From Archangium sp. (GTDB taxonomy: Bacteria > Myxococcota > Myxococcia > Myxococcales > Myxococcaceae): 64,000 nucleotides of DNA. Position 1 is the stretch's first letter. Each line of letters begins with the position of its first letter. The DNA is taken from contig NZ_DASUNC010000017.1 in NCBI RefSeq assembly GCF_036277355.1, positions 3,873 through 67,872 on the forward strand, given 5' to 3'. Positions 23,419 through 52,305 of this stretch are shown here, one piece after another. The translations under genes and the position numbers were made by a program. The notes under the pieces are model-generated. The model was not told the DNA's origin and made no database searches. It worked only from the letters and a program-made list of their open reading frames with translations.

Positions 23419-23427
23419 GAGAGACAC

Positions 23428-24984
23428 ATGGCTGCGATGGCGAACCGGTATGACGTGGTGGTGGTGGGCTCCGGCTTTGGAGGCTCCATCTCCGCCTTGA
23501 GGCTGGCGCAGGCCGGCAAGTCGGTGGCGGTGCTCGAGCGCGGCCGGCGCTACACCCCCGGGCAGTTCCCCCGGGACGTGACGCGCACGAACGAGCTGCT
23601 CTGGCGCCACGCCTCCCGCGAGCAGGCCCAGGGTCTGTACGATCTGCGTTTCCTCTCCGGCATCGGCACGGCGGTGGCCAGCGGTGTGGGAGGTGGCTCG
23701 CTCGTCTACGCCAACATCCACGTGCGGCCGGACGCCGTCGTCTTCGAGGATCCGCGCTGGCCCAGGAGCTACACGCGCGCCGCGCTGGAGCCCTACTACG
23801 ACAAGGTGGCCAGCGAGCTGAAGCTGACGCCGATGCCCGAGTCGATCAACCTGCGCAAGCGCAACGTGCTGCGCGCCGCCGCCCAGCGCATGGGCCGGGA
23901 GGTGTTCGATCCGCCCGAGGCCGTGGCGTGGACGGAGTCTCCCGGTCCGGGCCGCAAGCCGTGCCAGCTGTGCGCCGAGTGCGAGTTCGGCTGTCAGTAC
24001 GGCGCCAAGCAGACGATGGATCAGACGTACCTGGCCCGGGCCGAGGCGCTCGGGGCCACGGTGTGGCCGCGCATGCAGGTGTCCCACGTGGAGCCGGCGC
24101 CGGGCGGCGGCTACCGGGTGCACTTCCAGGACCTGGCCACCGGGGAGAAGCGCTTCGTGGAGGGCGCCCGCGTGGTGCTCTCCGCCGGAACGCTGGGCAC
24201 GGTGGAGATCCTCCTGCGCAGCCGCGACCAGACGCGCACCCTGCCCAGGCTCAGCGCGCGGCTGGGCCATGGCTACTCGGGCAACGGTGACTTCCTCGGC
24301 TCGGTGTTCAACAGCCGGGAGGACCTGGAGCCCTGGAAGGGCCCGGACGTCTCCACGGTGATGCGCTTCTTCGACGCCGAGCCCTCCTTCACCATGGCGG
24401 CCCCCACCTTCAACAAGCCCGTCATGGAGGTGCTGACGGGCCTGGGGCAGCCGAACATCGGCGCTCCCTTCCAGGGCCTCGGCGCGCCGCTGTGGCCCCT
24501 GCTGGGTCCGGCGCTCGACCTGGCCTTCCGCAAGGGGCTGCTCAGCAAGCCGGCCCGCACCTCGGCGGACCCGGCGCGGACGACGAACCTCTTCGGCATC
24601 GGACGGGACAACGCCAACGGGCGCATGCTGATGAAGGGCGGCAAGCTGGACATCGAATGGGACTTCGCCGGGGAGAACAAGGCGCTCATCGATCGGATGG
24701 GGAAGGCCATGCAGGAGCTGGCCTCCCAGTACGGCGGCACCTACGCGCCGCTCGTCACCTGGCAGCTCTTCAAGAAGGTGATCACCGTACACTCCCTGGG
24801 CGGGGCGCACCTGTCCGAGTCCCCCGAGCGCGGCGTGGTGTCCACCGAGGGCGAGGTGTTCAACTACCCCGGCCTCTACGTGGCGGACGGCTCGGTGATT
24901 CCCACCTCCATCGGCTTCCACCCGGTGATGACGATCAGCGCGGTGTCCGAGCGCATCGCCGAGGCCGCGGCGCGCGGCTTCTGA
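23428..24984 (+). CDS. GMC-family FAD oxidoreductase (paralog of the upstream gene)
   Basis: YDVVVVGSGFGGSISALRLAQAG; CQLCAECEFGC motif at the equivalent position; GLYVADGSVIPTSIGFHP. 9-nt gap to the upstream paralog. Confidence 0.85.
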   Translation: MAAMANRYDVVVVGSGFGGSISALRLAQAGKSVAVLERGRRYTPGQFPRDVTRTNELLWRHASREQAQGLYDLRFLSGIGTAVASGVGGGSLVYANIHVRPDAVVFEDPRWPRSYTRAALEPYYDKVASELKLTPMPESINLRKRNVLRAAAQRMGREVFDPPEAVAWTESPGPGRKPCQLCAECEFGCQYGAKQTMDQTYLARAEALGATVWPRMQVSHVEPAPGGGYRVHFQDLATGEKRFVEGARVVLSAGTLGTVEILLRSRDQTRTLPRLSARLGHGYSGNGDFLGSVFNSREDLEPWKGPDVSTVMRFFDAEPSFTMAAPTFNKPVMEVLTGLGQPNIGAPFQGLGAPLWPLLGPALDLAFRKGLLSKPARTSADPARTTNLFGIGRDNANGRMLMKGGKLDIEWDFAGENKALIDRMGKAMQELASQYGGTYAPLVTWQLFKKVITVHSLGGAHLSESPERGVVSTEGEVFNYPGLYVADGSVIPTSIGFHPVMTISAVSERIAEAAARGF

Positions 24985-28144: not shown

Positions 28145-28705
28145 TCAGGGCTTTGTTTCCGTCCAGGTGATGCGGAAGGTTACGCCCTCATCGTCAAAGT
28201 GGCGCAGCACCGCCCGCATGTTCAGATCGCCCGCGCCGCGCGCCGAGCCCTGGACGATTCCATGCTTGAAGTGGCGCAGCAGACCGCGCTCGTTCAACCA
28301 CAGGTCCACCTCGGTGGGCCCCAGATCCGTGATGAGGGCCTCCTGGTAGTTGTTGCCCGCGCGGAAGTTCTGCCGCACGCGCGACAGTCTGCGCTTGGGA
28401 TTCATCAGCCGCAGCACGCCGAAGATGGCGCGGCCCAGCATCGTCTCGCTGTACCCCTCGATGTGCCGCTCGCCGAGCAGCCGGAAGCCCTCGGCTTCCG
28501 ACTTCTCCGGGTGCAACGTCTTCGCCGCCAGGCCCACGCACCGCTCCCACACCTCGACCGGGTAGGCCGGCAACAGCCGCTTGTCCAGGTCCAGCCCCGC
28601 CTGCTTCAACTGCTGCCGGAGGTTGGGCGAGATCTTCGGGCCGATTCCCCGGACGAAAAGCCCCTCGACGGTCTGATCGAAAACGAGTCTCTCGTTCTTC
28701 AACAT
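28145..28705 (-). CDS. DUF2378 / TIGR02265 family protein (second paralog)
   Basis: ATG 28705 with AAGGAAG RBS. MLKNERLVFDQTVEGLFVRGIG... Lies 116 nt downstream of the HK on the same strand. Confidence 0.65.
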   Translation of the reverse strand: MLKNERLVFDQTVEGLFVRGIGPKISPNLRQQLKQAGLDLDKRLLPAYPVEVWERCVGLAAKTLHPEKSEAEGFRLLGERHIEGYSETMLGRAIFGVLRLMNPKRRLSRVRQNFRAGNNYQEALITDLGPTEVDLWLNERGLLRHFKHGIVQGSARGAGDLNMRAVLRHFDDEGVTFRITWTETKP

Positions 28706-28821
28706 GGCGTTACTTCCTTGCTGTGCCCAGACCCATGGGTCAGGCCCCCTTGGCACGCAGGCACCCCACTTATGGCGTCGTGACCGCAGCCTACCATGGG
28801 ACTACCTCGCGCGGGGTGGGT

Positions 28822-30480
28822 CTAGCCCGAGGCAGGGCCCGTCCACAAGCGGGGAGCCGCCTCCACCACCGCGAAGGCCGCCCCCCGTTGCTGTTGTAGC
28901 TCCGGTGGCAACAACTCCAGGCTGGCCCCGAAGGCCCGCAGCATGGACTGGGCGATCGTCAGGCCGAGCCCCGTGCCTCCCCGCTCGCGGGCCGTGGTGA
29001 AGAAGGCGTCGAAGACGCGGGCCCGGTTGGACTCGGAGATGCCCCTGCCATCGTCGCGCACCACCACCCGGGCCCTCCCCTCCCCGGCCACGTCCGCCTC
29101 CAGCCGCACGTGCACCCCCTCGCCCCCATGCTGGGCGGCGTTGGTGATGAGCTGCCAGACGATGTCCTCCAGCACCTCGGCGGGCAGGCCCAGGACGAGC
29201 CCCGCGGGCACCGCCCCCACCTCCACGGCCAGCCCCCGCGCCCGGCCCCGCTCGGCCAGCGCCGCCAGCAGCGGGCCCACCTCCGTCCGCGCGGGCCGGG
29301 CCACCAGCGAGTCCGCCCGGGCCAGCTCCAGCAGCCGCTGCACCAGCCGGGTGAGCCGCCGGGCATCCGCGTCGATGTTGGCGAGGAAGCGCTCGCGCTG
29401 CTCGGGGGACATGGCGCCGGCGCTGTCGCGCAGCAGCTCCACCGCGCCCTGGATGGAGGCCAGCGGCGTCTTGAACTCGTGCGACACGTTGGCCGCGAAG
29501 GAGCGGATGTACTGGTTGCGATCCCTCAGCGCCGTGGCCATGCCGGCCAGGGACTCGGAGAGCTCGGCGAGCTCCTCCACCACCGGGCGCGCCACCGGCT
29601 CGAAGCCCTCGGGCGCGCTGGCGGCGATGGCGCGCGTCTGCCGCACCAGGGCCCTCACCGGGCGGACCACCAGCGCCGCCGCGGCCAGTGACATCAACGC
29701 CACCACGCCCAGCAGCACCAGCCCGGTGGCCGTGAGGTTCCACCGGTCCGCGTAGAGGGCCTTGGCGAACGTCATGGGCGTGCGGGAGAGCAGCACCGCG
29801 CCCCACACCCGCTCGCCCTCGAGCACCGGCAGCACCACCGTGACGCGCACCCCGGTGTCGCGGCTCAGCGAGGCGAGCGGTGCGTCCTCGGGATCGGCGA
29901 GGCGCCGGCGCAGGACGCTGCGAGGCTCGCCGCGCAGGGCACGCTGGACCTCCTGCCGGGCCACCAACGTGGTCCCCAGCCCCATGGAGCTGCTGGCCAC
30001 CACCACGCCCTGGGCATCCATCACGCGGATGCCCGCCAGGGTGGAGCGCCGCACCTGGGCGAGCAGCGGAGAGAGCTGCTTGCCGGCCTCGCGGGCACGA
30101 GGCTCCGCGGGGATGGCGGAGACGGGGGGATCCTCCATCGCGGGCAACGCCTCGTCCGAGGCCCGGAGCGAGGGAAGGATGGGCCGCAGCTCCGAGTCCG
30201 AGGGCGACGCGAAGGGCCAGGACGCGAGCCGGGTCACGCCATAGTCCTCCGTCCCGACCTTCTCGCGCAGCAGCTCGCCGTAGAGCGAGGCGACCACGAC
30301 GCCCTGGGCGATGAGCTCGGACTCCGTCTGGCGGATGAGCTGGTTGTCGTAGACGCGGACGAACGCCAGGCCGAGCAGCGCGATGATCAGCGCTCCCAGC
30401 CCCACCGCGGCGAAGACCATCCACAGGCGCGGGCGGGCGCGCTGGCGGTCAGGGGATCGCGAGCCGGTAGCCAAGGCCAT
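28822..30480 (-). CDS. Sensor histidine kinase (two TM, periplasmic sensor, HAMP, HisKA, HATPase_c)
   Basis: H-box SHEFKTPLASIQGAVELL; G boxes GGTGLGLTIAQ. The ATG at 30480 overlaps the RR stop by 32 nt; the alternative ATG at 30420 gives a 28-nt gap. Confidence 0.8.
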   Translation of the reverse strand: MALATGSRSPDRQRARPRLWMVFAAVGLGALIIALLGLAFVRVYDNQLIRQTESELIAQGVVVASLYGELLREKVGTEDYGVTRLASWPFASPSDSELRPILPSLRASDEALPAMEDPPVSAIPAEPRAREAGKQLSPLLAQVRRSTLAGIRVMDAQGVVVASSSMGLGTTLVARQEVQRALRGEPRSVLRRRLADPEDAPLASLSRDTGVRVTVVLPVLEGERVWGAVLLSRTPMTFAKALYADRWNLTATGLVLLGVVALMSLAAAALVVRPVRALVRQTRAIAASAPEGFEPVARPVVEELAELSESLAGMATALRDRNQYIRSFAANVSHEFKTPLASIQGAVELLRDSAGAMSPEQRERFLANIDADARRLTRLVQRLLELARADSLVARPARTEVGPLLAALAERGRARGLAVEVGAVPAGLVLGLPAEVLEDIVWQLITNAAQHGGEGVHVRLEADVAGEGRARVVVRDDGRGISESNRARVFDAFFTTARERGGTGLGLTIAQSMLRAFGASLELLPPELQQQRGAAFAVVEAAPRLWTGPASG

Positions 30481-31156
30481 GCACCGTCTGGATGACTTCG
30501 CCTCCCGCCGAGGCGAACTTCTGCCGGATGTGCCGCACGTGACTGTCGATGGTGCGATCACTCACCACCACGTCCTCGTAGACGCGCGTCATCAATTCGT
30601 CGCGGGTGAAGGCCTTGCCGGGTGCGCGCAGGAGCGCGGTGAGCAGGTGGAACTCGGTGACGGTGAGCACCACCTCCTGACCGTTCCAGTACGCGCGCCA
30701 CAGGTCCAGGTCCATCCGCAGGGGCCCGCGCAGCAGCACCTGGGCGGGCGAGGGAGCGGGCGCGGAGGGCGCGGGGCTCGCGGTGGCACGGGCCCGCCGC
30801 AGCACGGCCTTGACGCGCGCCACCAGCTCGCGCGGGCTGAAGGGCTTGGCGATGTAGTCATCTCCGCCCAGCTCCAGTCCGAGGATCCGGTCCACCTCGT
30901 CATCGCGCGAGGAGAGGAACACGATGGGGACCTCGTGGGCGCGGCGGACCTCGCGGCACATCTCCAGCCCATCCATCTCGGGCATCATGATGTCCAGGAC
31001 GATGAGCGCGGGCACGGAGCGGCGCACCTGCTCCAGGCCGGCACGTCCGTTGGAGGACTGCTCGACGTGGAAGCCCGCCTGCGAGAGGGCGAAGCCCACC
31101 ACCTCGCGCAGGTGCGGATCATCATCGACCACCAGGATGGAAGGACGTTCGGTCAC
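30449..31156 (-). CDS. OmpR-family response regulator
   Basis: REC domain (ILVVDDD...D..MPEMDG), with a winged-helix ending TVHGLGYRL. Confidence 0.9.
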   Translation of the reverse strand: MTERPSILVVDDDPHLREVVGFALSQAGFHVEQSSNGRAGLEQVRRSVPALIVLDIMMPEMDGLEMCREVRRAHEVPIVFLSSRDDEVDRILGLELGGDDYIAKPFSPRELVARVKAVLRRARATASPAPSAPAPSPAQVLLRGPLRMDLDLWRAYWNGQEVVLTVTEFHLLTALLRAPGKAFTRDELMTRVYEDVVVSDRTIDSHVRHIRQKFASAGGEVIQTVHGLGYRLAIP

Positions 31157-31261
31157 GGCGTCCCGGACGCTAGGCCACCCCCTCCGTTCCCGGCAACAGT
31201 CTGATTAGATGCGCGCGAAGCCTCCGGTATGGCGTGCCGATGATCGGCGCCCCTCCGGAGC

Positions 31262-36104: not shown

Positions 36105-38405
36105 TCAGTCTCCAAGCACCGTCGCGACGGCCCGGTACTCCGGCCGCAGGATCCGCTCGGCCTCCGTGCCGGCCACGACCACCGGGAGCATCGCGCCCTC
36201 CAGCCCCGCCTCGGCCGAGAGCTTCACCGCGATGGGCGCCATCACCTTCGCCTCGATGAGCCGCTTCAAGGGCCGGGCGCCCAGCTTCGGGTCGTACCCG
36301 TGACGGGCCAGCCAGGCCCGCGCGTCCGGCTCCACCACCAGCCGCAGTCTGCGCCGCAACAGCCCCGCCCGGGAGGCCGCCTTCTCCAGCTCCAGGTCGA
36401 CGATCCGCAGCACATCCGCCTCCGACAGCCGGCGGAACGGAATGACGTGATCGATGCGGTTGAACAGCTCCGGCCGGAAGGTCTGCCGGATGGCGCGCAT
36501 GAAGTCCTCCGAGCCGCGCTCGGCCCCGAAGCCCGTGGGCTCCGACTGCTCGACGCCGAGGTTGCTCGTCATGCACACCACCGTCATCCGGAAGTCCACC
36601 AGCCTCCCGAGGCTGTCCGTCAGCCTCCCCTCCCCCAGGATGCCGAGCAGCAGATCGAACACCTCGGGGTGCGCCTTCTCGATCTCATCGAAGAGCACGA
36701 GCGACATCGGCTGTTGCCGCACCCGCTCGGCGAGGCTGGTGATTCCCGGGCCCACCTCCATCAACCGCTGGGCCGAGCCGGGCTGCATGTACTCGGACAT
36801 GTCGAGCCGGATCATCCGGTCCTCGTTGCCGAAGAGCGTGCGCGCGAGCTGCTTGGACAGCTCCGTCTTCCCCACGCCCGTGGGCCCGGCGAAGAGCAGC
36901 GTGCCCACCGGCTTCTCCGGATCGTTGAGCCCCGCCTTGAAGCGCGCCAGCACGCCCGCCGCCAGCTCGCAGGCGCGATCCTGCCCGATGACCCCCTGCC
37001 GCAACTGTCCCGCCAGCGAGGCCTGCTCTGCGGGCACCTCGTCACTGATGAGCTGGAGCGGCAGCCCCGTGTAGCGCGCGTAGGCCTCGGAGACATCGCG
37101 CGGATAGAGCGTCCGGGCCTTGCCCGGCTCGCCCTGCTGCTCCAGCCAGTCGAGGAAGCGGAAGGCCTTGCCCGGAAACAGGCTGTCGCGCTGGAACGTC
37201 TCCAGGTGCCCGACGAGCTGTCTCAACCCCAGGGCATGGATGCTCACCCGGCTGCGCTTCGCCGCCTGGTAGCGCAGCATCAGCTCCGGCACCTGCGAGG
37301 CCGGCGGAGGCTCGATGCGGATGATGCGGAAGGGCCGCAGCGACTCCGGGAAGCGCCGCTGGCAGCGCTCCAGCTCGGCCTCGGTGCACTCGGCGATCAG
37401 GGAGATCTCCCCGCTCATCGCCGCGGGCAGCAGCAGATCTCCAATGGACGAGCCGTCCGGCTGGGGCGCGAGGATCGACGTGAGCCGGTCCACGTAGAGG
37501 TAGTCGTTCTCGTTCGAGAGCGCGTCGACGATCTTCAGGCAGCGCTCCTGCCACATGCCCAGGTACACCATGCCGGCGACGATGCGCTCGGCGCTGGTGC
37601 GCCAGATCCTCGGCAGGCTCACCTTCTTGTCCTCACGCCGCTGCTCGGCGATCAGCCGCGCGAGCTTCAGCACCTGGCTCGTCTTGCCGGAGCCCGGGCC
37701 CCCCACGAGCAGCAGGGACTGCGGTGGCTGGCGCTGCGCGTGGGCGAGCCAGGAGCGCATCGACTCGGCGTCGTACACCAGTGCCGGCTGCCTGCCTCCC
37801 AGGGCGCGCGAGGTCAGCTCCTCGCTGATCTGCTCGAGGACTTCAGGAGGCCGCTCCTCGCCCGGGCCGCGCCGGTTGTCCCGCAGCAGCCAGCCGAGGT
37901 CCCAGCTGCTCACGTACTCCGCGCCCTCGTGGCGGAAGTCGTACAGCCCCTTGGGCTTCTCCCCGAGCAGCACGGTGGTGAGCGCGTTCTGCAACACCTC
38001 GCGCGCGATGGAGAGCTCCTCGAGCACGAACGACCAGCCGAAGCGCGGCACCCGCACGCGCCAGGCACCGCTCTCCAGCTTCCCGTAGACGTACGTCAGC
38101 TTGAGCGGGATCAGCGCCTTGGCGATCACCGGCCGCTTCTTGTGCACGGTCTGCGGGTGGATCTCCACGGTGATGGTCCGCGCCTCCAGGCTCTCCTCCC
38201 AGAGGAACCGACCGAGCCCGGCTGGGTTCTCGAGCATCATCAACCGGATGCGCGTCTCGAGCAGCGCGTAGATCTCCGCCTCGCTGTTGCCGTAGGCCGA
38301 GGGCGGAGGATCATCGAAGAAGCTGTCCCAGACCGGCAGGAGCTGCCCGGTGAGCCGGCCATCGTGGTGGGTGGTGAAGTAGACGCGAAGGCTCTTGTCG
38401 CTCAT
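36105..38405 (-). CDS. ClpA/ClpV-like double-AAA+ ATPase, paralog 3 (unrecognised ~190-aa N-domain; no C-terminal extension)
   Basis: D1 Walker A LLLVGGPGSGKTS. D2 LLFAGPTGVGKTELSKQLA, Walker B LVLFDEIEKAHPEVFDLLL, sensor MTSNLG, FRPELFNRID. No ClpB middle domain (Walker A1 to A2 is ~280 aa). The ATG (MSDKSLRVY) overlaps the upstream stop as ATGA. Confidence 0.8.
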   Translation of the reverse strand: MSDKSLRVYFTTHHDGRLTGQLLPVWDSFFDDPPPSAYGNSEAEIYALLETRIRLMMLENPAGLGRFLWEESLEARTITVEIHPQTVHKKRPVIAKALIPLKLTYVYGKLESGAWRVRVPRFGWSFVLEELSIAREVLQNALTTVLLGEKPKGLYDFRHEGAEYVSSWDLGWLLRDNRRGPGEERPPEVLEQISEELTSRALGGRQPALVYDAESMRSWLAHAQRQPPQSLLLVGGPGSGKTSQVLKLARLIAEQRREDKKVSLPRIWRTSAERIVAGMVYLGMWQERCLKIVDALSNENDYLYVDRLTSILAPQPDGSSIGDLLLPAAMSGEISLIAECTEAELERCQRRFPESLRPFRIIRIEPPPASQVPELMLRYQAAKRSRVSIHALGLRQLVGHLETFQRDSLFPGKAFRFLDWLEQQGEPGKARTLYPRDVSEAYARYTGLPLQLISDEVPAEQASLAGQLRQGVIGQDRACELAAGVLARFKAGLNDPEKPVGTLLFAGPTGVGKTELSKQLARTLFGNEDRMIRLDMSEYMQPGSAQRLMEVGPGITSLAERVRQQPMSLVLFDEIEKAHPEVFDLLLGILGEGRLTDSLGRLVDFRMTVVCMTSNLGVEQSEPTGFGAERGSEDFMRAIRQTFRPELFNRIDHVIPFRRLSEADVLRIVDLELEKAASRAGLLRRRLRLVVEPDARAWLARHGYDPKLGARPLKRLIEAKVMAPIAVKLSAEAGLEGAMLPVVVAGTEAERILRPEYRAVATVLGD

Positions 38406-41400
38406 GGGGTCACCCGCTCGCTCATCCGCAGCCGCCACAGGGCCGGCAGGGCCTCGGCGGGATTCCTCACCCGATGGCTGCCGCTGTGGGTCAGCAGGTA
38501 GTCATCCAGCTCCAGCACCGACACCGCTCCCGGACGTGCGGGCGGCTCGAAGCGGTAGGCGCGCACGACGGGAGCCGCCGCCTCCGGATCCTCCGGGAGC
38601 GGGCTCACGCCCTCCTGGCGTGCCTTGTGGAAGGCCTGGAGCTTCACGGCATGCAGCGCGAGCAGCTCCGCGGGCGATGGCGCATTCGCCTCGTGAACGC
38701 GGACCTTGACGATCTCCGGGAGCCGGCCCGAGGACTGCCACACGTGCAGCCCGGCCTCGCCCTCGAAGAAGGGCCGCACGCCCGGGCCCACCAGCTTGAT
38801 CGCGGCATGCACGGGCTCCTGCATGGACAGGTGCAGGAACTCCCGGAGCTGCCGGGGCCCACCGGACACCAGGGCCCCACCGGGCAGGTGCGCGGCGAAG
38901 GACTCGATCTCCCCACGCGAGTGCGCATAGGCCGAGCAGAGCCACCGGGCGAGCAGCGACCCGGAGGACGCGCCCTGACGCCACTGGCCGAGCGGGAGCA
39001 GCTCCAACATGACCACGTGCTGATCCGGGCTGGAAATCCCCCGGAGGATGCGTTGCAGGAAGTAGACCTCCGACAGCGCATCGAGCATCTGCTCGCGGGA
39101 GACGGCCTTCACCGGCTCGAACGCGCGCCGGGCGAAGAGCCGGATGCGTGTCCCCTGGGACCAGCGATCGGCGCCAATCCGCTCCACGCCGAAACGCTCG
39201 GCCTCGATCATCTCCCGCTCCGTCTCCTCGGGAGCGCGGGCGAGAGACTCGAGTTGCGCCGCGAAGGCCTCCAGGTACATCCGCATCGCATCGAGCGTGA
39301 AGAGCGACTCGGCGTGATCGTGCTCGCCCGCCCGCAGACGCTCCAGGTGGAAGCGGACCTGCTCGGACAGGGCACCGAGCGCCTCGCTCTCGCGCAGCTC
39401 CTGCACCACCTCACGCAGCTCGAGCATCTTCTCGCGCAGCCGTGCGATGGGGAGCGACAGGAGTGGCTCCAGCGCGAAGCCCTGGGCCAGCGGCTCCCGG
39501 GGAATGAGCGCATCGGCCTGCGCCTCGAAGCGGCCCTCCCGGGTGTAGAGCTGGAACAGCCGCATGAGCGCCTGGGGTCCCCGGATGATGGCATCGGAGA
39601 GGACCTGCCCGACCTTCTCCTCCAGGTAGCGCTTCAGCGGCCGCGCGCCCAGGTGGGGATCGAAGGCCTCCTCGACGATGCGCCGCTTCACCGCCTCGTC
39701 GGCGGCCACGAAGATGTTGCGGGACACGAGCCCGTGCCGCGACAACAGTCGCGCCAGCTCCTTCTCCACCACCTTCTCGCCCACGTCCCGCGAGAGCGGC
39801 GAGAAGTGCACGATGCGATCGATGCGGTTGAAGAGCTCGGGCGGGAAGAACTCGCGCACGGCCCGGTCCGCATCCAGCTCCAGGGCGCGCGCGTCCGGCG
39901 CACCGAGCCCCACCGCCGGCTTGCGCCGCGCCCCGAGGTTGCTCGTCATCACGATGACGGTATGGGTGAAATCCGCCGTCTCGCCCGAGGCATCCGTCAA
40001 CCGGCCCTCGTCGAACGTCTGCAGCAGCAGGTTGAGCAGCGAGGGATGTGCCTTCTCGATCTCATCGAGCAGCACGAGCGAGAAGGGCTGCTCGCGGATG
40101 AGGCGCGTCAACCGGCCCTCGGGCTGCCAGGCGTCGCCCGTGAGCCGCGCGACGGCATCCGGCGTCTGGAACTCGCCCATGTCGAGCCGCACCAGCCGCG
40201 ACGCATCGCCATACAGGTAGCCGGCCAGCGCGCGGGCGAGCTCCGTCTTTCCCGTGCCCGTGGGGCCGGTGAACAGATAGACGCCGTAGGGCCGCCGGGG
40301 ATCCGTGAGTCCGGCATGGATGCGCGCGACGAGATCGCACGCCACGCGCACCGCCTCCGGCTGTCCCATCACCTTGCGCGACAGGGCCTCGTGGACCTCC
40401 TCGGGCACCAGCCGCTCCTGGGGGCGCAGGAGGAAGTCCGGCAGGCCCGTCCTGCGCGACAGGTGCGCGAAGAGCTCGCCGACGCCGAGCTCCCGGCCCG
40501 GGGCTCCCTGGTCCGTGGCCAGCTCGCGCAGCAGATCGAGCGCCTTGCCCGGAAGCGCGGACCCGGAGAAGAGCGTCCCCGCCTGCTCCAGCAGCACCGG
40601 GAAGAGCGGAGGGGACCAGGCGATGTGGTGCTTGGACTCCAGCTCGCGCGCCTCGTGCAGCAGCATGCGCAGTGTCTCGTCGGTGCGGGTGGAGCGCACG
40701 TGCACCTGGGTGAAGAGCGCGGCGAAGGACGGGGCGTCCGTCTCCAGCCGCTGGAGCTGCTCGGGCGTCACCGTGCCGGCGAGCGTGAGCTCTCCACGTG
40801 CCAGGGCTCCCTGGAAGAAGAGCGCGAGATTGGTGTCACTCTCCCGCGAGCGGCCGATGCGGCCGAAGGCATGCAGGTCCTCGATGAAGAGGATGCGCCG
40901 CCCTCCCCTCGTGTCCTCGAGCACCTTGAGGCAGCGCTGCTCCCAGTCGCCCACGTAGCTCATGCCGGCGATGATCCGCTTGCCGGCGATCGACCAGACC
41001 TCGGTCACCTTGTCCAGGTTGCGGTGGGTCTGGAAACCATCGGCCTCGAGCTGCTCGGCCACGAAGCGCTTGAGCAGGGTCCGCTTGCCGCAGCCGGGAG
41101 GACCCACGAGCAGCACCGGCGTGCGCCGCTCGCCTCCGAGCAGGAGCTGGAGTTGCTCCCGGTAGGGGCCGCGCGGCATGCCGGTATCGAGCGTGCCCTC
41201 CGCGGCCTGGAGGGTGAGGTTCGTCCCCAGCTTGTGCAGCACCTGGGTGCCGCCACCGGACTTCTTCTGCTTCTTCTTGCCGCCGGCCCGTTCCCGCCGG
41301 TCCTCGGCCTCCAGGTCGTCCCAGGGCCCCTTCTTCTTGCCGAGCTCGTCGAGCAGCGACTTCGGCTGGGCCATGAACGCGAGCGCCTTGAGGGTGTCCT

Positions 41401-41875
41401 TGCGGTTGGAGCGCAGGTCATCGTGCTCGTACGGCTCCAGCTGGGCCCAGGCACGGGTGAAGAAGACCTTCGCCTGCTCCTCGAGACTGGCGCCGGTATC
41501 GACCGGGAACCACTCGTGCTGGCGCGCGGGGTGGTAGGCGATGGTCATGAGCTCGTCGCGCGTGCGCCAGCGCGGCTCGAGGATGAGCGGGAAGAGACCG
41601 GACAGCCGCGGCGTCTCGGTTCCGGTGCGCACGCGCTTGAAATCCAGCTCGAGCTGTACCCGCTCCAGGCGGATGCCTCGGGGGAGCTGGAAGTACGACA
41701 GCTCCCGGACGGGCAGCTCGCCGATGATGCTCCGGAGATCCTCCACGAGCTTCTGCTGGAGCTTGACGGTGCTCCGTCCCTCTCGGCTGCGGGTATGGGG
41801 GCCGAGCGCGAGCGTGGTCCACCGGTAGCCACTGGAGGCATCGCGGCTCTGGTACACGCCAAGAGTGAGGTTCAT
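38402..41875 (-). CDS. ClpA/ClpV-like double-AAA+ ATPase, paralog 2 (unrecognised ~250-aa N-domain with Lys-rich linker; ~380-aa C-terminal extension)
   Basis: D1 VLLVGPPGCGKRT and ILFIEDLH. D2 YLFTGPTGTGKTELARALA, LVLLDEIEKAHPSLLNLLL, FFPPELFNRID. ATG (MNLTLGV) in an ATGA overlap with the upstream stop. Confidence 0.8.
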   Translation of the reverse strand: MNLTLGVYQSRDASSGYRWTTLALGPHTRSREGRSTVKLQQKLVEDLRSIIGELPVRELSYFQLPRGIRLERVQLELDFKRVRTGTETPRLSGLFPLILEPRWRTRDELMTIAYHPARQHEWFPVDTGASLEEQAKVFFTRAWAQLEPYEHDDLRSNRKDTLKALAFMAQPKSLLDELGKKKGPWDDLEAEDRRERAGGKKKQKKSGGGTQVLHKLGTNLTLQAAEGTLDTGMPRGPYREQLQLLLGGERRTPVLLVGPPGCGKRTLLKRFVAEQLEADGFQTHRNLDKVTEVWSIAGKRIIAGMSYVGDWEQRCLKVLEDTRGGRRILFIEDLHAFGRIGRSRESDTNLALFFQGALARGELTLAGTVTPEQLQRLETDAPSFAALFTQVHVRSTRTDETLRMLLHEARELESKHHIAWSPPLFPVLLEQAGTLFSGSALPGKALDLLRELATDQGAPGRELGVGELFAHLSRRTGLPDFLLRPQERLVPEEVHEALSRKVMGQPEAVRVACDLVARIHAGLTDPRRPYGVYLFTGPTGTGKTELARALAGYLYGDASRLVRLDMGEFQTPDAVARLTGDAWQPEGRLTRLIREQPFSLVLLDEIEKAHPSLLNLLLQTFDEGRLTDASGETADFTHTVIVMTSNLGARRKPAVGLGAPDARALELDADRAVREFFPPELFNRIDRIVHFSPLSRDVGEKVVEKELARLLSRHGLVSRNIFVAADEAVKRRIVEEAFDPHLGARPLKRYLEEKVGQVLSDAIIRGPQALMRLFQLYTREGRFEAQADALIPREPLAQGFALEPLLSLPIARLREKMLELREVVQELRESEALGALSEQVRFHLERLRAGEHDHAESLFTLDAMRMYLEAFAAQLESLARAPEETEREMIEAERFGVERIGADRWSQGTRIRLFARRAFEPVKAVSREQMLDALSEVYFLQRILRGISSPDQHVVMLELLPLGQWRQGASSGSLLARWLCSAYAHSRGEIESFAAHLPGGALVSGGPRQLREFLHLSMQEPVHAAIKLVGPGVRPFFEGEAGLHVWQSSGRLPEIVKVRVHEANAPSPAELLALHAVKLQAFHKARQEGVSPLPEDPEAAAPVVRAYRFEPPARPGAVSVLELDDYLLTHSGSHRVRNPAEALPALWRLRMSERVTP

Positions 41876-44800
41876 CGCGAGGCCCCCCGGATCACGTCGA
41901 GCGCGAAGGAGAATCCACTCTCGGCATCGAAGTTCCCGGAGCTTTCGAGCAGCAGGATGTGTTCGAGCAGGATCCGTTCGAGCGCCTGGAAGTGCTCCCA
42001 GGAATCCAGCTGAAGCTTGCGTGCGCCATCGCACAGCAGGAGCTCGCCGCCGGGAACGTACTCACGGATGGCTGGCATCAACCGCAGCTCCCGGAGATCC
42101 TTGCCGGCCCGTTGTGCCGGAGGGGCGATGGCGGGCAGCTCGAGCTCCTTCTGGAACAGCTGGGTGGACATGGCAACGGGCCTGACCTCGACCTGGACCA
42201 GCTCGTCCTTCTCGGTGGGGGGATAACGATGAACCCCGGCCTCGAGCGCCAGGAAGGCCCCCGCGTTCGTGCCGTTGACCAGGAGCAGTACCTCCCGGAA
42301 GGCCCGCGAGGGCGCGGCCAGCTCCTTCCGAAGCTGCTCCGCACCCAGCAGCTTGTCATCCCACTTGCGCTTGCGCTCGCTGCTCTTGTGGGTGACCGAG
42401 ACGCGGCCCTCGACCGTCCAGCCGCGCCGGGGCGCATCCTCGATCAGCGGCAGGATCCAGCGCTCGAGGCCGCGTGTCTCCCCCGCCTCCTGGAGGATGA
42501 GCGTGATCTGATCCCTCCGGGGCTGGAGCGCGAGCAGCACGGACGGCATCAGCTGGCGGATGGCCTTCATCTGCGCGTGGGCCTCGTCCACGAAGGGGGC
42601 GGCATCCTGCTGCTCGAAGAGCGCCATCAGCGCCAGCTCCTCGGCGGCCAGGAGCGATGCGCGCAACCGCCGGGCCTCGCTCCAGAGCGCCTCGAGCCGG
42701 CTGTGCTCGTACTGGAGTTGTCCCAGCGAGGACGCCTCGGGCCCTCGCATCTTCTTCTGATCTCCCTGGGCGAGCTGGGCCACCAGGAAGTGGATCCGCT
42801 CCCCCACGTTCTCCACGGCATCCATCCGGAAGAGCCTGTCGATGACCCGCCGCTGCTCCTGCAGGTCGCGCACGAGCTCGAGCTGGTTGCGCGCCGTCTT
42901 CGGGCTGCCCTTGGTCAGCTCCACGGCAATGCCCCCGGGACGGGAGGCGATCACCACACGGCCGCCCTGGGCCTCGGGCCCGGCCTCGGAGAGCATGCGG
43001 GCGATGGGGACGACGAGCTGCTGGTCCAGGTGCCTGCGCATGGCCCGGGCGCCATAGGCCTCCTGGTAGCCGGAGGTGGCGAGCGCGGTGGTGATCTCCG
43101 GAGGCACCTCGAGCGAGACCCCGCGCTGCATCAACCCGCGCCGCTGCCGCAGCTTGTCCACGCCGAGCCGGGCCACCTCCGCCGCCTGCTCGGGGGTGAG
43201 CGGGTGGAAGGGAATGAGCTGGTCGATGCGGTTGACGAACTCGGGGCGGAAGTGACGGTGCACCTCGCGCAGGTAGTACGAGGCGTCATCCACCGAGGTA
43301 GCGCCGATGCCCAGCGGGGAGCGGCGGTGCGCCACGCCGAGGTTGCTCGTCATGATGATGATGGCGTTGTGGAACCACGCCGTCTGCCCCCGGGCATCGG
43401 TGAGCCGCCCTTCCCCGCACACCTGCAGGAGCAGATCGAAGACGGCCGGGTGGGCCTTCTCGATCTCGTCGAGCAGGAGCACGCAGAAGGGCTGCTGGCG
43501 GACGCGGCGCGTGAGCAGCCCCTCGCCCTGGGTGTTGCCCCGGATGAGCCGTTCGGCGGCCCAGCCGTCCATGAACTCGCTCATGTCGAAGCGGAACATC
43601 CGCTCCGGCGAGCCGAAGAGGAACGTGGCGAGCAGCCGCGCGAGCTCGGTCTTCCCGACGCCGGTGGGGCCCACGAAGAGGAAGGTGGCCAGCGGCTTGC
43701 CCTGGGGCTGGAGGCCCGCCTTCACCATGCACAGCGTCTCCACGACGCGGCGCACCGCCGTCTCCTGGCCCACGAGCTGGCGGCGGAAGTGCGCCTCGAC
43801 CTCCCCGGCGAGCAGCGCGCGGTCCTCGCGCAACAGGAACTCGGGGACGCCCGTCTTGAGGCTGAAGAGCGAGTACACGCGCTCGCGGGTGAGCAGGGGC
43901 ACCTCGCCCGTGCCCGTGCGCTCCTGTTGCAGTCCCGCGCGCATCTCCTCGTACAACCGGATCGCCTTGCCGGGCAGCGCGCGGCTCGGCAGGTAGCGCT
44001 CGGCCAGGTCCACGAGCGGATCCACCGCGTCGTCGGCCAGCGAGTACCGCGAGGGCTCGGCCTTGCGTTGCCAGACCGTCCGGCTCCGGAGCGCCTCACG
44101 GGTCTGCCGCGTCCCCAGGGGCTCCAGGCGCACGCGGCCGAGCACCGCGAAGAGGCCCGGGTGCCGGTTCTCGAGCAGATCCAACGACTCGGGGGTGAGC
44201 TCTCCGAGGAACCGCACCCGGCCCTCCTCCAGGAAGGGCTTCATCGCGCCGGGGATGTCCACGTGCTCCGAGGACTGCTGCGCGAGCAGCTCCCCGAGGT
44301 TCTCGAAGTACAGGACGGCGTCGAGCTCCTGTGCCGCACGCATGACCCGCAGCACGCGCTCCTGCCACTGGCCGAAGCCGGACATGCCGGCGATCAACCG
44401 CGAGCCGCTCGTGGCGTACACGCGCCGCTCGCGGCCGGCCTTGCGCTCGGCGCGGAGCCACGCGAGGAGCAGCTCCGTCTTGCCCACGAGCTCCGGGCCC
44501 ACGAGCAGCACGCCCTGCCGCTTCTCGCCGCCGAGCAGGCCGGACAGCAGCGCGAGCTCGGTGTCCCGGGCGATGAGGGGCGGTCCGTGCCGGGCCTCGT
44601 CGCGATCATGCAGCACCGTGGAGACGGAGAGGAGCACCTGGTGCGCCTGCTCCCGCTTGAGCTTCTCCTCCAGCTTCTTCTTCGCCTGCCGGGCCTTGTC
44701 GCTCGCGTCCTGACGCCGGAGCGCGAGCTGGACGGTCTCGAGCGTCACGAACTTCGGAGGCAGCAGCCGCAGGTACTCATGGGCGGCCGGCTCGCGCGCG

Positions 44801-45234
44801 GCGAGCAACCGCTCCACGTCCGCGCGCACCGTCTCGCGCACGTCCTGGTTCCTGCCCACGTAGACCGTGTGATCGATCGCCGGCACGAAGACCCACGTCT
44901 CCTCCGCGAGCGGCACGACGATGGTGGCCAGCTCGACGGTGACGGGCTTGACGAGCTTCTTGGGGAGATCGGCGCGGGGGGCGAGGATCTCCAGCATCTC
45001 GAGCCGCACCTGCTCGGGGAAGGAGAAGCGGGCCAGCTCCTCGGGCTCCACCCTGGACAGGTGCTCCTCGAGGAACAGGCGCTGCTCGCCCAGACAGGCC
45101 TCGAGCGTGGGCGCGTGGCTCGTCAGGGTGGGCGCGGCCACGGGGAACACCTGGTGGTCCCCGTTCCACAGCTGCTGGCAGACGAGCGGCGTGGAGAACT
45201 CGAGCGTCCCGGGGACGGCATTGGAAGAAGCCAT
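41872..45234 (-). CDS. ClpA/ClpV-like double-AAA+ ATPase, paralog 1 (unrecognised ~240-aa N-domain; ~350-aa C-terminal extension)
   Basis: D1 VLLVGPELVGKTELL. D2 FLFVGPTGVGKTELARLLA, VLLLDEIEKAHPAVFDLLL, MTSNLG, FRPEFVNRID. It is the first gene of the three-gene unit. Confidence 0.8.
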   Translation of the reverse strand: MASSNAVPGTLEFSTPLVCQQLWNGDHQVFPVAAPTLTSHAPTLEACLGEQRLFLEEHLSRVEPEELARFSFPEQVRLEMLEILAPRADLPKKLVKPVTVELATIVVPLAEETWVFVPAIDHTVYVGRNQDVRETVRADVERLLAAREPAAHEYLRLLPPKFVTLETVQLALRRQDASDKARQAKKKLEEKLKREQAHQVLLSVSTVLHDRDEARHGPPLIARDTELALLSGLLGGEKRQGVLLVGPELVGKTELLLAWLRAERKAGRERRVYATSGSRLIAGMSGFGQWQERVLRVMRAAQELDAVLYFENLGELLAQQSSEHVDIPGAMKPFLEEGRVRFLGELTPESLDLLENRHPGLFAVLGRVRLEPLGTRQTREALRSRTVWQRKAEPSRYSLADDAVDPLVDLAERYLPSRALPGKAIRLYEEMRAGLQQERTGTGEVPLLTRERVYSLFSLKTGVPEFLLREDRALLAGEVEAHFRRQLVGQETAVRRVVETLCMVKAGLQPQGKPLATFLFVGPTGVGKTELARLLATFLFGSPERMFRFDMSEFMDGWAAERLIRGNTQGEGLLTRRVRQQPFCVLLLDEIEKAHPAVFDLLLQVCGEGRLTDARGQTAWFHNAIIIMTSNLGVAHRRSPLGIGATSVDDASYYLREVHRHFRPEFVNRIDQLIPFHPLTPEQAAEVARLGVDKLRQRRGLMQRGVSLEVPPEITTALATSGYQEAYGARAMRRHLDQQLVVPIARMLSEAGPEAQGGRVVIASRPGGIAVELTKGSPKTARNQLELVRDLQEQRRVIDRLFRMDAVENVGERIHFLVAQLAQGDQKKMRGPEASSLGQLQYEHSRLEALWSEARRLRASLLAAEELALMALFEQQDAAPFVDEAHAQMKAIRQLMPSVLLALQPRRDQITLILQEAGETRGLERWILPLIEDAPRRGWTVEGRVSVTHKSSERKRKWDDKLLGAEQLRKELAAPSRAFREVLLLVNGTNAGAFLALEAGVHRYPPTEKDELVQVEVRPVAMSTQLFQKELELPAIAPPAQRAGKDLRELRLMPAIREYVPGGELLLCDGARKLQLDSWEHFQALERILLEHILLLESSGNFDAESGFSFALDVIRGASR

Positions 45235-45289: not shown

Positions 45290-46435
45290 ATGGCGCATGT
45301 GAATCCAAGCATCTTCCAGTCCGCGCTCGAGCGGCGGTTGCGCGACGAGCTCCTCGCGGGCGAGGACACCCAGCGGGCGCTGCGGCATGTGGACGCGGTG
45401 CCGGGCAGGTTCGGCGGCGTCGCGAGGCAGAGGCAGCTGCTCTCGAACGCCTTCAAGCTGACGCGCCCGGTGGCCCCGCGGGTCCTGGATGCGCTGGCCG
45501 CCTGCAAGGAGGTCCTGGGCCACGAGGGACCCGTGGATGTGTTCGTCAACCCGGAGCCCATGATCCGGGCCGCGGCGGTGCAGGCCCCGCCGGACACTCC
45601 CGCCATCGTTCTGTCCTCCCGGCTCCTGGAGGTGTTCCAGGAGGCCGAGCTGCGCTTCATCCTCGGGCACGAGCTCGGGCACCTCGCCTTCGAGCACTTC
45701 ACCCTGCCCCTGCCGGCCACGGCCCTGGCCTGGGACGGAGAGGATGGACGATTCGTCTCCCCCGCCACGGCGCTCGGGCTGTACCGGTGGAACCGGGCGG
45801 CCGAGGCCAGCGCCGACCGGGCGGGACTGCTGTGCTCCCGGGAGCTGGAGGCCTCCGCGGGCGTCCTGCTCGCACGGGTGAGCGGATGGACCGCAGGCTC
45901 GGTGAAGTCCGAGCTGCAGGCGGCGGCGCGCCATGTGGACGCGCTCCTGTCCGATCCATCGGCCCGTGAGCGGCCCAGTGAGGACGATGAGGTACTCGGC
46001 GGTTTCCGCGCCCATGCCTTCAGCCCATGGCGGGTGCGTGCCCTCGCGGCGTTCTCCAAGACGAGGACCTTCCTGAAGAGCGCGGGCCGCTATGCGAGCG
46101 AGGAGGGACTGTCGGACGAGGAGGCCGACACCCTGCTGGCGTGGGAGCTGCGGGAGCTGGATCCCTCCTACCTGGAGAAGTCCGAGCATCCCGAGCTGCT
46201 GAACCTGGCCCTGACGACGGGGAAGCTCCTGCCCGTGCTGGAGCAGCTGTACCAGGAGCGGGCGACCCTGTCCGAGCGGGCCCGGCTGGCGCAGCACTTC
46301 GCCTTGATGAAGGCCCCGGACGGCGTCGTGGACAACCTGGGTTACCTGGAGCTGAGGAAGGTGGCCGGAGCGCTGGCGGTGCCCACGTGGCTCGTGGACG
46401 AGGCCCTGCGCGGCGCCAGCAATCCCTTGGATTGA
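45290..46435 (+). CDS. Soluble M48-family zinc metallopeptidase-like protein
   Basis: HEXXH plus a downstream Glu: FILGHELGHLAFEH. ATG at 45290 with GGAGG 14 nt upstream (the track's 44921 start was rejected). No obvious TM. Transcribed divergently from the AAA+ triad, 55 bp away. Confidence 0.7.
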   Translation: MAHVNPSIFQSALERRLRDELLAGEDTQRALRHVDAVPGRFGGVARQRQLLSNAFKLTRPVAPRVLDALAACKEVLGHEGPVDVFVNPEPMIRAAAVQAPPDTPAIVLSSRLLEVFQEAELRFILGHELGHLAFEHFTLPLPATALAWDGEDGRFVSPATALGLYRWNRAAEASADRAGLLCSRELEASAGVLLARVSGWTAGSVKSELQAAARHVDALLSDPSARERPSEDDEVLGGFRAHAFSPWRVRALAAFSKTRTFLKSAGRYASEEGLSDEEADTLLAWELRELDPSYLEKSEHPELLNLALTTGKLLPVLEQLYQERATLSERARLAQHFALMKAPDGVVDNLGYLELRKVAGALAVPTWLVDEALRGASNPLD

Positions 46436-50135: not shown

Positions 50136-51131
50136 TCAGCCCAGGTGCTGCAGCTCGCGCGAGAGCTGGGTCTCCAGGTCCCGGATGTTGCGGTACACGA
50201 GGCAGCGGTAGGCCGCGACGTCGAACTTGAGTTCCTTGAGATCGCGGACGAGCAGGATGGTGGGCCGTCCCCTGCCCCACGCGTAGCCGACCTCCAGGTA
50301 CACGTTGGGGTTGGCCATGGACAGGTCCGCGATGACGACCTTCGCGGTGTCGATGCGCTCCTTGATCCGCTGGATGATGGCGCCCTCGAACACGGCTTGA
50401 TCCACGCGCTCGCACAGGAGCCCCGCGCCCTTCACGGGGCCCAGGATGCCGTAGTGGTAGACGTCCTCCATCTCGGAGGCGAAGGGCATGGCGACGAAGG
50501 CGTGGGGCTTGGCCAGCGACTGCGCCCCGGCCGTGGCCATGGGCGGCGCCTGGACGTGCTGGCTCGTGCGCTTGACGCGGAAGCCCCAGCCGCTCGTCAG
50601 GGGCTCCACCCCCGGGCTCTTCCCGAGTCCCCGCTCCAGCGCCGTGCGAAGCCGGTCCGCCCGCTTCTGCTGCAGCTCCACCACGGTGATGCGCTCCAGC
50701 CCCTGGGGCCCGGCACCCCGCATGAAGGCCTCGACGAGGCCTCCGACGAGCGCGAGCGCCGCCTCGTCCTCGTCCAGGCCGTAGTTGGGGCCGTGCACCG
50801 TGCAGGCGACGTGGCGGATGTCCGGGCGCGACTCGAGCGCCTTGAGCGCCCGGGCCGCGAACTGGCGAATCTCGTGGTAGCCGAACTTCCCCAGCTTCAC
50901 GGTGCCGAGGAAGAGGGCCAGGGGCGCGCCGATGGCGCCTCGCGTCTCGATGAAGACATGCTCCCCGATGGGCACCGAGAAGCTCGCCATCGGGATGCCC
51001 GCCTGGACGAGCCGCGAGGCCACGGCCTGATCCGCGCCGTAGAAGCTCTGGGCGTGCTTGAGCAGCACCACGTCCGCGCGCGTATCGGTGATGTTTCCGG
51101 CTTCCAGAACGAGATCGAGGGCAGCGCTCAT
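50136..51131 (-). CDS. Two-domain protein: unknown N-domain + C-terminal nucleoside 2-deoxyribosyltransferase-like/TIR-like domain
   Basis: C-terminus HAFVAMPFASEMEDVYHYGILGPV...AKVVIADLSMANPNVYLEVGYAWGRGRPTILL matches the NDT/Rcl-like signature (FxAxPF; D-x-N; E-x-G-Y-A; GKP-x-I). Lies 16-34 nt downstream of rtcA on the same strand. Start is ATG 51131 or GTG 51149. Confidence 0.65.
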   Translation of the reverse strand: MSAALDLVLEAGNITDTRADVVLLKHAQSFYGADQAVASRLVQAGIPMASFSVPIGEHVFIETRGAIGAPLALFLGTVKLGKFGYHEIRQFAARALKALESRPDIRHVACTVHGPNYGLDEDEAALALVGGLVEAFMRGAGPQGLERITVVELQQKRADRLRTALERGLGKSPGVEPLTSGWGFRVKRTSQHVQAPPMATAGAQSLAKPHAFVAMPFASEMEDVYHYGILGPVKGAGLLCERVDQAVFEGAIIQRIKERIDTAKVVIADLSMANPNVYLEVGYAWGRGRPTILLVRDLKELKFDVAAYRCLVYRNIRDLETQLSRELQHLG

Positions 51132-51165
51132 CGGGAGGGACTGTCTCACGGAGGGGGCGGGCCCG

Positions 51166-52239
51166 TCACCGGGGCGCGACCTCGACCGCGCCTCCCGGCT
51201 CCACCGTCACGCGCACGGGCAGGAAGCGCTCGATGAGCCACGCGTGCGTGGTGAGGTGCTCCGTCACCCGCGCCGTCGTGTAGCGCGTCGTCCCCGGAGA
51301 CGAGGGGCCCAACAGGCCCGCCGCCAGCAGCGCCGCGGGCAGGAGGATCTGATCCCCGAGGTGCTCGTCCAGCGCGCCCCCGCTCTCCATGAAGCGCGCC
51401 ACCTCCTCCGCCGCCTCGCGCCCCACGTCCTCCGCGGGAAGTCCCCGCTTCCCCAGGGCCGTGAAGCCGGCGAGGGTGTTCTCGAACTGCGCCAGGATGA
51501 ACGTCACCGTGCCCACCGAGTGCGTCACCGGCAGCGGCCGGTTCTCCGCGTGGCTGTAGATGCCCCGCTCGCGCAGCGCCGCCACCGCCGCCTTGGACTG
51601 ACGCTCCGCGATGCCAAAGGGCAACCCGCCCACGAACGAGCCCACCGCGATGTCCCGCAGCGTCCCGCGGGAGGGCAGCTCCACCCGGTTCGGTGGATCC
51701 CTCACCGGCTCCACCTCGGCGATGAACTCTCCCGCCCCCTGCGGGTAGAAGCCCGCGTGCACCAGGCGCAACGAGGCGTTCAGCCCGTAGGCCTTCGCCA
51801 CCGGCAGCCACACCCCCACCACGTAGTGGTAGCTGGGGCTGTGCGGCAGGTGCGTCCCCCCGCGCAGGGTGAGCGAGCCGCCCCCCGCCAGCGCCAGCGG
51901 GTAGAAGAGGCACTGGAAGAGCAGCGGCGTGCTGCCCGCCGTCCCCACCTCCAGCACGTAGTTGCCCGGGTGCACCGGCCCCGGCTCGAAGCGCAGCTCC
52001 GAGGCGCCCACCGCCGCGCCCTCGCTCTGGCCCCCGCTGATGGCCTCCGCGCCCCGCACGCAGGCGAGGTGCTGCGGCCTCAACCCCGGCGGCTGGCGGT
52101 GGGCCCGCACGTTCTTCATGTGGAAGGGCCTCCCGGTGATGAGCGACAGCGAGAGCGCCGAGCGGAGGATCTGCCCTCCTCCCTCCCCCTCGCTTCCGTC
52201 GAGCTCCACCGGTCCGTCGTGGCGGTCCGTGCCTGCCAT
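51166..52239 (-). CDS. rtcA: RNA 3'-terminal phosphate cyclase
   Basis: [32 protein letters not shown] is colinear with E. coli RtcA ([27 protein letters not shown]). ATG at 52239 with a GGAGGGGAAGGGG SD; the track's 52476 extension is a Gly/Asp/Glu-rich artefact. Confidence 0.85.
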   Translation of the reverse strand: [357 protein letters not shown]

Positions 52240-52305
52240 GCCCCTTCCCCTCCGAGAAAGTCCCGCGCAGCCTAGCAGAAGGCTTTCGGGTACTGTCCGC
52301 CCGCC

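Follow-up and report, generated by a model that had tools for sequence, protein, structure and literature searches.

The known unfoldase partners of ClpP form a small and long-established set, comprising ClpX, ClpA, ClpC and ClpE. Every characterised hydrophobic-Gly-Phe or IGL loop located between sensor-1 and the arginine-finger (Arg-finger) helix docks onto ClpP (PMC9035409, PMC12521514), and in the ClpP partner ClpC of Staphylococcus aureus, in which AGF is the functional motif, either of the substitutions G672D and F673D abolishes ClpP binding (PMC12521514). In contrast, ClpB and Hsp104 are devoid of this tripeptide and, according to reviews, acquire ClpP binding only through grafting of the ClpA loop (PMC5540906), as in the BAP chimera (PDB 5ofo). 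Here, we investigated a 64,000-nt window of Archangium sp. DNA (G+C content 70%; all positions refer to this window), in which three paralogous genes on the minus strand, termed genes 1, 2 and 3, encode two-module Clp/Hsp100 ATPases, each carrying a tripeptide that resembles the ClpP-docking motif. The best single explanation, to which we assign a probability of roughly 55%, is that all three tripeptides serve in ClpP docking, as loops of the hydrophobic-Gly-Phe (or IGL) type. We favour it because of the position of the tripeptides, the type of motif, its selective conservation, the flexibility of the loop, the contrast with ClpB and Hsp104, and the absence of a middle domain. Thus, while the docking loop itself is of a known kind, its hosts constitute an undescribed, Myxococcota-restricted family with atypical properties; neither this family nor the release-factor/Clp fusion that occurs in two of its members turned up in literature searches.

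Position and sequence of the tripeptides

A six-frame search of the window located PLGIGA in gene 1, AVGLGA in gene 2 and PTGFGA in gene 3, each 7-8 residues past the sensor-1 NLG of the second AAA+ module (D2), with MTSNLG before the motif and F(R/P)PE(L/F)xNRID after it. An earlier note on this DNA had described hydrophobic-Gly-hydrophobic tripeptides at the position of the ClpA IGL in all three paralogues, which is borne out to within two residues by the MAFFT alignment, and the segment that it singled out, 36522-36536, indeed encodes T624-G-F-G-A628 of gene 3. The flanking helix, given there as FRPE(L/F)xNRID, is also present in all three proteins, although gene 2 has FPPE instead of FRPE.

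The alignment spanned Walker B to the Arg-finger helix. As references, Escherichia coli ClpA, ClpB, ClpX and ClpP were taken from the MG1655 record, and fragments of Bacillus subtilis ClpC, Mycobacterium tuberculosis ClpC1 and ClpB, and yeast Hsp104 were verified against PDB chains. Allowing for a register ambiguity of two residues, the family motifs coincide with the IGL of E. coli ClpA (residues 617-619; aligned site S-IGL-I), the VGF of B. subtilis ClpC (Y-VGF-N) and the LGF of M. tuberculosis ClpC1 (G-LGF-S), all of which are ClpP partners; in E. coli ClpX, the corresponding IGF occupies residues 268-270. The distance between the sensor-1 Asn and the motif Gly is 10-11 residues in the family and 12-13 residues in ClpA, ClpC and ClpC1. 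None of the four non-partners analysed (three ClpB proteins and yeast Hsp104) features a hydrophobic-Gly-Phe/Leu motif at the aligned site, which reads R-FGE in E. coli ClpB, Q-KGW in Thermus thermophilus ClpB and Q-QGS in yeast Hsp104, the loop being entirely missing from M. tuberculosis ClpB. The statement in the earlier note that ClpB lacks the insertion therefore needs qualification, since E. coli ClpB is indeed without the motif but retains a segment of equal length (27 residues).

Comparison with described Clp systems

The family shares with ClpA its two collinear AAA+ modules, which align in one piece with 31-32% identity over 570-606 aa, and the absence of a middle domain. The loop between sensor-1 and the Arg-finger helix is likewise of similar length (27 residues in ClpA, 25-28 in the family), and the LGI and VGL of the window resemble the IGL of ClpA. 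There are, however, substantial differences. The NCBIfam ClpA models score only 302-325 bits against a cutoff of 993 (TIGR02639 / NF008263). Genes 1-3 have no Pfam match to Clp_N, and instead carry an N-terminal domain (N-domain) of their own, for which a profile detected no relatives among PDB sequences and in Pfam. Moreover, the first AAA+ module (D1) of the family is devoid of the Walker B Glu and the Arg fingers, GYVG is deleted from D2, and three coupled paralogues, two of them with a release-factor-like tail, stand against the single gene for ClpA.

Similarity to ClpC and ClpC1 is found at several levels, as most family members carry the same motif types (VGF, AGF and LGF), the best structural neighbours of the gene 3 model are ClpC/ClpC1, and D2 scores 232-240 bits against them. 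Nevertheless, the loop of ClpC is longer by approximately 8-10 residues, and ClpC possesses a short middle domain, Clp_N repeats and adaptors such as MecA; it also keeps GYVG and an active D1, both of which the family has lost. At the sequence level, D2 most resembles ClpB of T. thermophilus (261 bits), and the small subdomain of D2 (D2-small) matches Pfam ClpB_D2-small. ClpB and Hsp104 have a coiled-coil middle domain, which is lacking in the family, where alignments with ClpB split in two and the gene 3 model contains no long coiled coil between the modules.

Assignment to any of these described families was rejected, with NCBIfam scores for ClpA, ClpB, ClpV, ClpK and ClpG three- to nine-fold under the cutoffs. 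In particular, ClpB was dismissed on the basis of 293-329 bits versus a cutoff of 1232 and the absent middle domain, and ClpV/TssH on the basis of 212-255 bits versus a cutoff of 885 (TIGR03345) and the lack of type VI secretion genes in the neighbourhood. Nor does the locus correspond to a known anti-phage defence system, for PADLOC returned only partial matches of the AAA core to DolB, PDC-M37B and mad8.

Conservation of the motif across Myxococcota

A profile of the family-specific N-domain and D1 recovered 218 relatives (one genome per species), the best 80 loci of which were studied. All 80 belong to Myxococcota, being distributed among Archangium, Cystobacter, Hyalangium, Vitiosangium, Sorangium, Chondromyces, Minicystis, Byssovorax, Haliangium, Kofleriaceae, Nannocystaceae, Enhygromyxa and Sandaracinus, and at least 44 of them retain the order gene 1-gene 2-gene 3. 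Among the orthologues, 46/49 of gene 1, 53/55 of gene 2 and 72/73 of gene 3 carry a hydrophobic-Gly-hydrophobic tripeptide at a constant offset, and the motif is also present in 80/83 additional representatives (50% clusters) of the gene 1 or gene 2 type. Because such short motifs are common, and E. coli ClpB itself contains LGV in the helix that follows, we considered whether the pattern might have arisen by chance in Gly-rich loops of a high-GC genome. This explanation is effectively refuted by a motif frequency of 7-8% in shuffled loops as compared with 94-99% observed, by the constant offset, and by the occurrence of the motif throughout the phylum.

Most family members outside Archangiaceae bear canonical VGF, IGF, LGF or AGF. 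Among distant orthologues (<65% identity), the canonical form [LIVAM]G[FL] is present in 20/29 for gene 1, 34/34 for gene 2 and 47/53 for gene 3, and all 34 gene 2 orthologues from outside Archangiaceae have VGF, LGF, IGF, AGF or MGF. Across residues 618-639 of the alignment of 70 gene 3 orthologues, conservation is confined to two positions, namely G625, which never varies, and F626, which is conserved to at least 90%; the rest of the loop is free to vary both in sequence and in length (23-54 residues), with Sorangium loops containing 10-15 additional residues past VGFG. Taken together, these patterns support strong purifying selection on the tripeptides in all three paralogue lineages across the phylum.

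Conservation of this kind also bears on the possibility that the motif was merely inherited from a ClpC/ClpA-like ancestor and kept for local structure in what would be a ClpB/ClpV-like unfoldase or disassembly machine operating without a peptidase. The proximity of the D2 sequence to the second module of T. thermophilus ClpB, which has K-G-W without binding ClpP, would suit such a scenario, as would the drift of the Archangiaceae copies (LGI, VGI, TGF, and even VSL and MRI). However, a relic would not be expected to stay near-invariant at one offset in paralogue lineages that share just 30-36% identity and differ in their flanks and loop length, and the site is unconserved among ClpB/Hsp104, whose members show four different states there. 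The middle domain of ClpB, needed for DnaK-coupled disaggregation, is missing from the family as well. We therefore regard inheritance without function in docking as unlikely, an assessment in line with the structural model described below.

Structure of the loop and integrity of D2

The AlphaFold2 model of gene 3, built from an alignment of 70 sequences (mean pLDDT 85.6), places a sensor-1 strand at residues 609-614, an 18-residue coil bearing TGF at 615-632, and a helix at 633-642. The block 621-630 has a mean pLDDT of 59, the lowest in D2. The motif would thus lie at the tip of a flexible surface loop, with its coil state, low pLDDT and homology pointing to exposure. The earlier note had named burial of these residues as an outcome that would undermine docking; the model shows TGF in low-confidence coil and not in a packed element, which also speaks against a motif kept for local structure. 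In a Foldseek search with the gene 3 model, ranks 1-12 were taken by ClpC/ClpC1 chains of ClpP complexes, followed by ClpB and ClpA at near-equal E-values. D2 is intact as an ATPase module, and all three paralogue classes conserve its Walker A, Walker B, sensor-1, Arg finger and sensor-2 to at least 90%.

Release-factor-like tails of genes 1 and 2

The products of genes 1 and 2 end in C-terminal domains, or tails, that resemble class-I release factors. The model of the gene 1 tail is of high confidence (pLDDT 94.3, pTM 0.91), and all of its 49 best Foldseek matches in PDB (49/49) are class-I release factors (RF1, RF2, mtRF1 and PrfH), with a probability of 1.0 over approximately 345-365 columns. 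At the sequence level, a tail profile matched RF1 with an E-value of 1e-4, aligning LALEAGLHRF opposite the release-factor core ESGVHRVQR, and the E-x-G-x-H-R core motif is kept in the tails.

Although the fold and this core are shared, the tails differ from release factors in their functional motifs. GGQ is present in 12/253 tails, which is the chance level, and has no established fixed position. The codon-reading motif PxT/SPF is not conserved, as the PVT of RF1 falls on variable residues, and the tails have no match to Pfam PCRF or RF-1. With the gene 1 tail alone as the query, a search by word index brought up only 9 relatives, and the full-length protein took its place. Among 1.84 billion representatives, the 164 matches to the tail domain were found only in fusion with this ATPase family.

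Arguments against ClpP docking and a possible alternative target

Several observations weigh against ClpP docking. First, the GYVG pore-1 loop of D2 is deleted in all three paralogues, leaving the remnants R-GxxxG-EG in gene 1, GDA-W-xPEG in gene 2 and EVGPG(I/V)TS in gene 3, in which a Trp is conserved in gene 2, Ile or Val in gene 3, and only polar residues in gene 1. To our knowledge, a ClpP-proximal motor ring without GYVG is unprecedented. Second, D1 keeps its Walker A and an aromatic pore loop (GMSGFGQWQ, GMSYVGDWE and GMVYLGMWQ), and its Walker B reads FEN, ED and DR for DE. Because the Walker B Glu and both Arg fingers are lost, D1 is probably a nucleotide-binding pseudo-ATPase, catalytically dead as judged by its motifs. 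Third, the tails (~350 residues) directly follow D2-small and would be situated near the face where ClpP would dock.

The genomic context provides no support either. A tblastn search with E. coli ClpP revealed no clpP in the window and 83 related loci (1.63 Mb), and no flanking gene, whether for a peptidase or otherwise, is conserved beyond the genus level. The clpA gene of E. coli is likewise not adjacent to clpP.

Finally, the motifs of the window themselves are derived, less canonical variants. Archangiaceae display LGI/IGI, VGI/VGL and AGF/TGF/VGY/MGY, and in the window gene 3 departs from the canonical form by a Thr at position 1, and genes 1 and 2 by Ile or Leu at position 3. In two Archangium metagenome-assembled genomes (MAGs), the gene 2 motif has even lost its Gly (MRI and VSL; loci L015 and L027), which suggests relaxed constraint on the gene 2 loop in the Archangium lineage. 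Furthermore, a Gly followed by an aromatic residue is not diagnostic by itself, as the non-partner T. thermophilus ClpB has K-G-W at this position, and the first residue of the tripeptide, hydrophobic or small, matters. Our confidence in ClpP docking is accordingly held down because GYVG is missing, D1 looks dead, bulky tails flank the docking face, and the motif has drifted in the Archangium lineage.

These same features raise the question of whether the conserved loops may bind something other than ClpP, such as a hydrophobic pocket of the tail domain, a neighbouring subunit or ring, or another protein, in which case the family would be a ClpP-independent remodelling ATPase. Selection on the loop is clear, but selection does not identify the partner. 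A D2 without GYVG makes classical threading into a peptidase less likely, the C-terminal domains that immediately follow D2-small in two of the three paralogues offer a conceivable target, and the family has no linked clpP. On the other hand, as outlined above, the loops of this type that have been characterised at this position all dock onto ClpP, and gene 3, which has no C-terminal domain, keeps the motif best of all (72/73). In Sorangium, gene-3-type and gene-1-type genes retain VGF even though they reside at separate loci. Overall, we consider a target other than ClpP improbable, to about the same degree as inheritance without docking.

The suggestion of the earlier note that the triad may feed a compartmental peptidase, in other words ClpP docking, was thus only partly upheld, being favoured by the position, coil state and conservation of the loop and by the absence of a middle domain, and opposed by the deleted GYVG and the lack of a linked clpP.

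Possible mechanism and implications

If the loops do dock onto ClpP, the three proteins would form a ring, probably a mixed one where the genes are linked, and their loops would insert into the hydrophobic pockets that a ClpP heptamer, encoded at another site of the genome, presents on its apical face. Two myxobacterial peptidases come into question as the partner, the housekeeping ClpP1 and the orphan ClpP2; in Myxococcus xanthus, ClpP1 is essential and the orphan ClpP2 has no activity on its own (PMC11423568). The unique N-domains, together with the release-factor-like tails of genes 1 and 2, would choose substrates, which would then be handed to the peptidase. Because the motifs of the window (LGI, VGL and TGF) are derived variants, binding may be weaker or unevenly shared among subunits in the Archangium genome.

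A mixed ring is likely where the genes are coupled. An obligate mixed ring, by contrast, is not established, since in Sorangium (L033-L050; also L088) genes of the gene 3 and gene 1 types each occur singly at loci far from one another, with no three-gene operon, and still keep VGF. A further arrangement is seen in a Myxococcales MAG (L006), which has a two-gene unit only, composed of the gene 2 and gene 3 types.

A bolder and rather doubtful extension, which we deem considerably less probable than either alternative to docking discussed above, is that the system represents a new AAA+ protease, in which a mixed three-paralogue ring sits on ClpP and dead release-factor mimics direct it to the A site of stalled or damaged ribosomes, where it would extract and degrade nascent chains or components of the ribosome. 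The recurrence of a nearby gene for an RNA 3'-terminal phosphate cyclase (RtcA) in Archangium and Sorangium would fit a ribosome/RNA damage response, by analogy with the known pairing of PrfH with RtcB.

Should docking be real, this phylum-wide family would extend the set of ClpP unfoldases, from whose known members it departs by its three coupled paralogues, dead D1, lack of a canonical pore loop, and release-factor-like domains on two subunits. Its confirmation would challenge the view that the ClpP-proximal ring requires a GYVG pore loop, and would give the orphan ClpP2 of myxobacteria a candidate partner.

Organization of the locus and neighbouring genes

The coordinates of the three genes, their motifs and other features of the window are listed in Table 1. 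The gene 1 product consists of the unique N-domain, degenerate D1, active D2, D2-small and the release-factor-like C-terminal domain, and matches a protein encoded by an Archangium sp. MAG (P0130) with 100% identity; the best protein matches lie in Archangium, and the gene 3 orthologues of Archangium violaceum and A. gephyra show 96% identity. The coding frames of genes 1-3 are backed by GC3 values of 0.88-0.93 and by Pfam matches to AAA_2 and ClpB_D2-small, the only ones obtained besides weak AAA matches for D1, and the long plus-strand open reading frames opposite these genes are antisense artefacts usual in high-GC genomes. Both junctions are 4-nt ATGA stop/start overlaps, which indicates that genes 1, 2 and 3 are translationally coupled; the same overlaps occur in the Minicystis rosea locus (L005) at 6618-6621 and 10001-10004.

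Table 1. Features of the 64,000-nt Archangium sp. window discussed in the text
Feature	Position	Strand	Details
Gene 1	41872-45234	-	1120 aa; translation, Pfam, GC3 0.93
PLGIGA, gene 1	43300-43317	-	Six-frame search
Tripeptide L641-G642-I643, gene 1	43306-43314	-	Distant orthologues: AGF, LGF, VGF, IGL and similar
C-terminal domain, gene 1	41875-42930	-	352 aa; class-I release-factor-like fold, without GGQ
Gene 1/gene 2 junction	41872-41875	-	ATGA; gene 2 ATG (41875-41873) overlaps gene 1 stop (41874-41872)
Gene 2	38402-41875	-	1157 aa; domain layout as in gene 1
AVGLGA, gene 2	39899-39916	-	Six-frame search
Tripeptide V655-G656-L657, gene 2	39905-39913	-	Six-frame search, orthologue comparison
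C-terminal domain, gene 2	38405-39526	-	Homologue of the gene 1 tail (hhalign probability 94%, E 9e-8)
Gene 2/gene 3 junction	38402-38405	-	ATGA; gene 3 ATG (38405-38403) overlaps gene 2 stop (38404-38402)
Gene 3	36105-38405	-	766 aa; N-domain, D1, D2, D2-small; without C-terminal extension
D2 Walker A GPTGVGKT, gene 3	36864-36887	-	
D2 pore-1 loop remnant, gene 3	36735-36761	-	M549-EVGPGITS-557; GAPPGYVGYEEGG there in ClpA/ClpB; GYVG and 6 residues missing
D2 sensor-1 MTSN, gene 3	36561-36572	-	
Candidate ClpP-docking loop, gene 3	36510-36563	-	Residues 615-632 (LGVEQSEPTGFGAERGSE); modelled coil between sensor-1 strand and helix
PTGFGA, gene 3	36522-36539	-	Six-frame search
Tripeptide T624-G625-F626, gene 3	36528-36536	-	Orthologues: VGF, AGF, LGF, IGF, MGF, VGY, MGY
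FRPELFNR, gene 3	36456-36479	-	Contains the D2 arginine finger (NR)
M48-family metallopeptidase	45299-46432	+	Divergent from gene 1
356-aa gene	50139-51206	-	Directly downstream of RtcA, overlapping it
RtcA	51169-52518	-	6 kb upstream of gene 1
DUF2378 paralogues (two)	7473-8165 and 28148-28801	-	
Two-component system	28825-31204		Adjoined by one DUF2378 paralogue
CmlA-like diiron beta-hydroxylase, cytochrome P450, two GMC oxidoreductases	2229-3998 (+) and 19656-24981		
Large site-specific recombinase	10642-13029	+	PF10136, E 2e-183

Upstream of gene 1 lies the RtcA gene mentioned above, and nine Sorangium genomes (L033, L037, L038, L042-L045, L047 and L049) have homologues of it, at approximately positions 400-3500 of these loci, ~7 kb upstream of their solitary gene-3-type gene. 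This proximity may be a coincidence, but is notable given the release-factor-like domains and the PrfH-RtcB pairing. The 356-aa gene next to RtcA has no Pfam match at an E-value of 1e-5, and the related loci contain a single, partial match to it, located at the edge of an Archangium violaceum locus (L008). The place of the metallopeptidase gene is conserved only in Archangium and Vitiosangium.

Farther from the three genes, the window encodes two paralogues of DUF2378. The diiron beta-hydroxylase, cytochrome P450 and GMC oxidoreductase genes may represent secondary-metabolite tailoring functions, and the large site-specific recombinase gene is followed by an endonuclease III-like gene.

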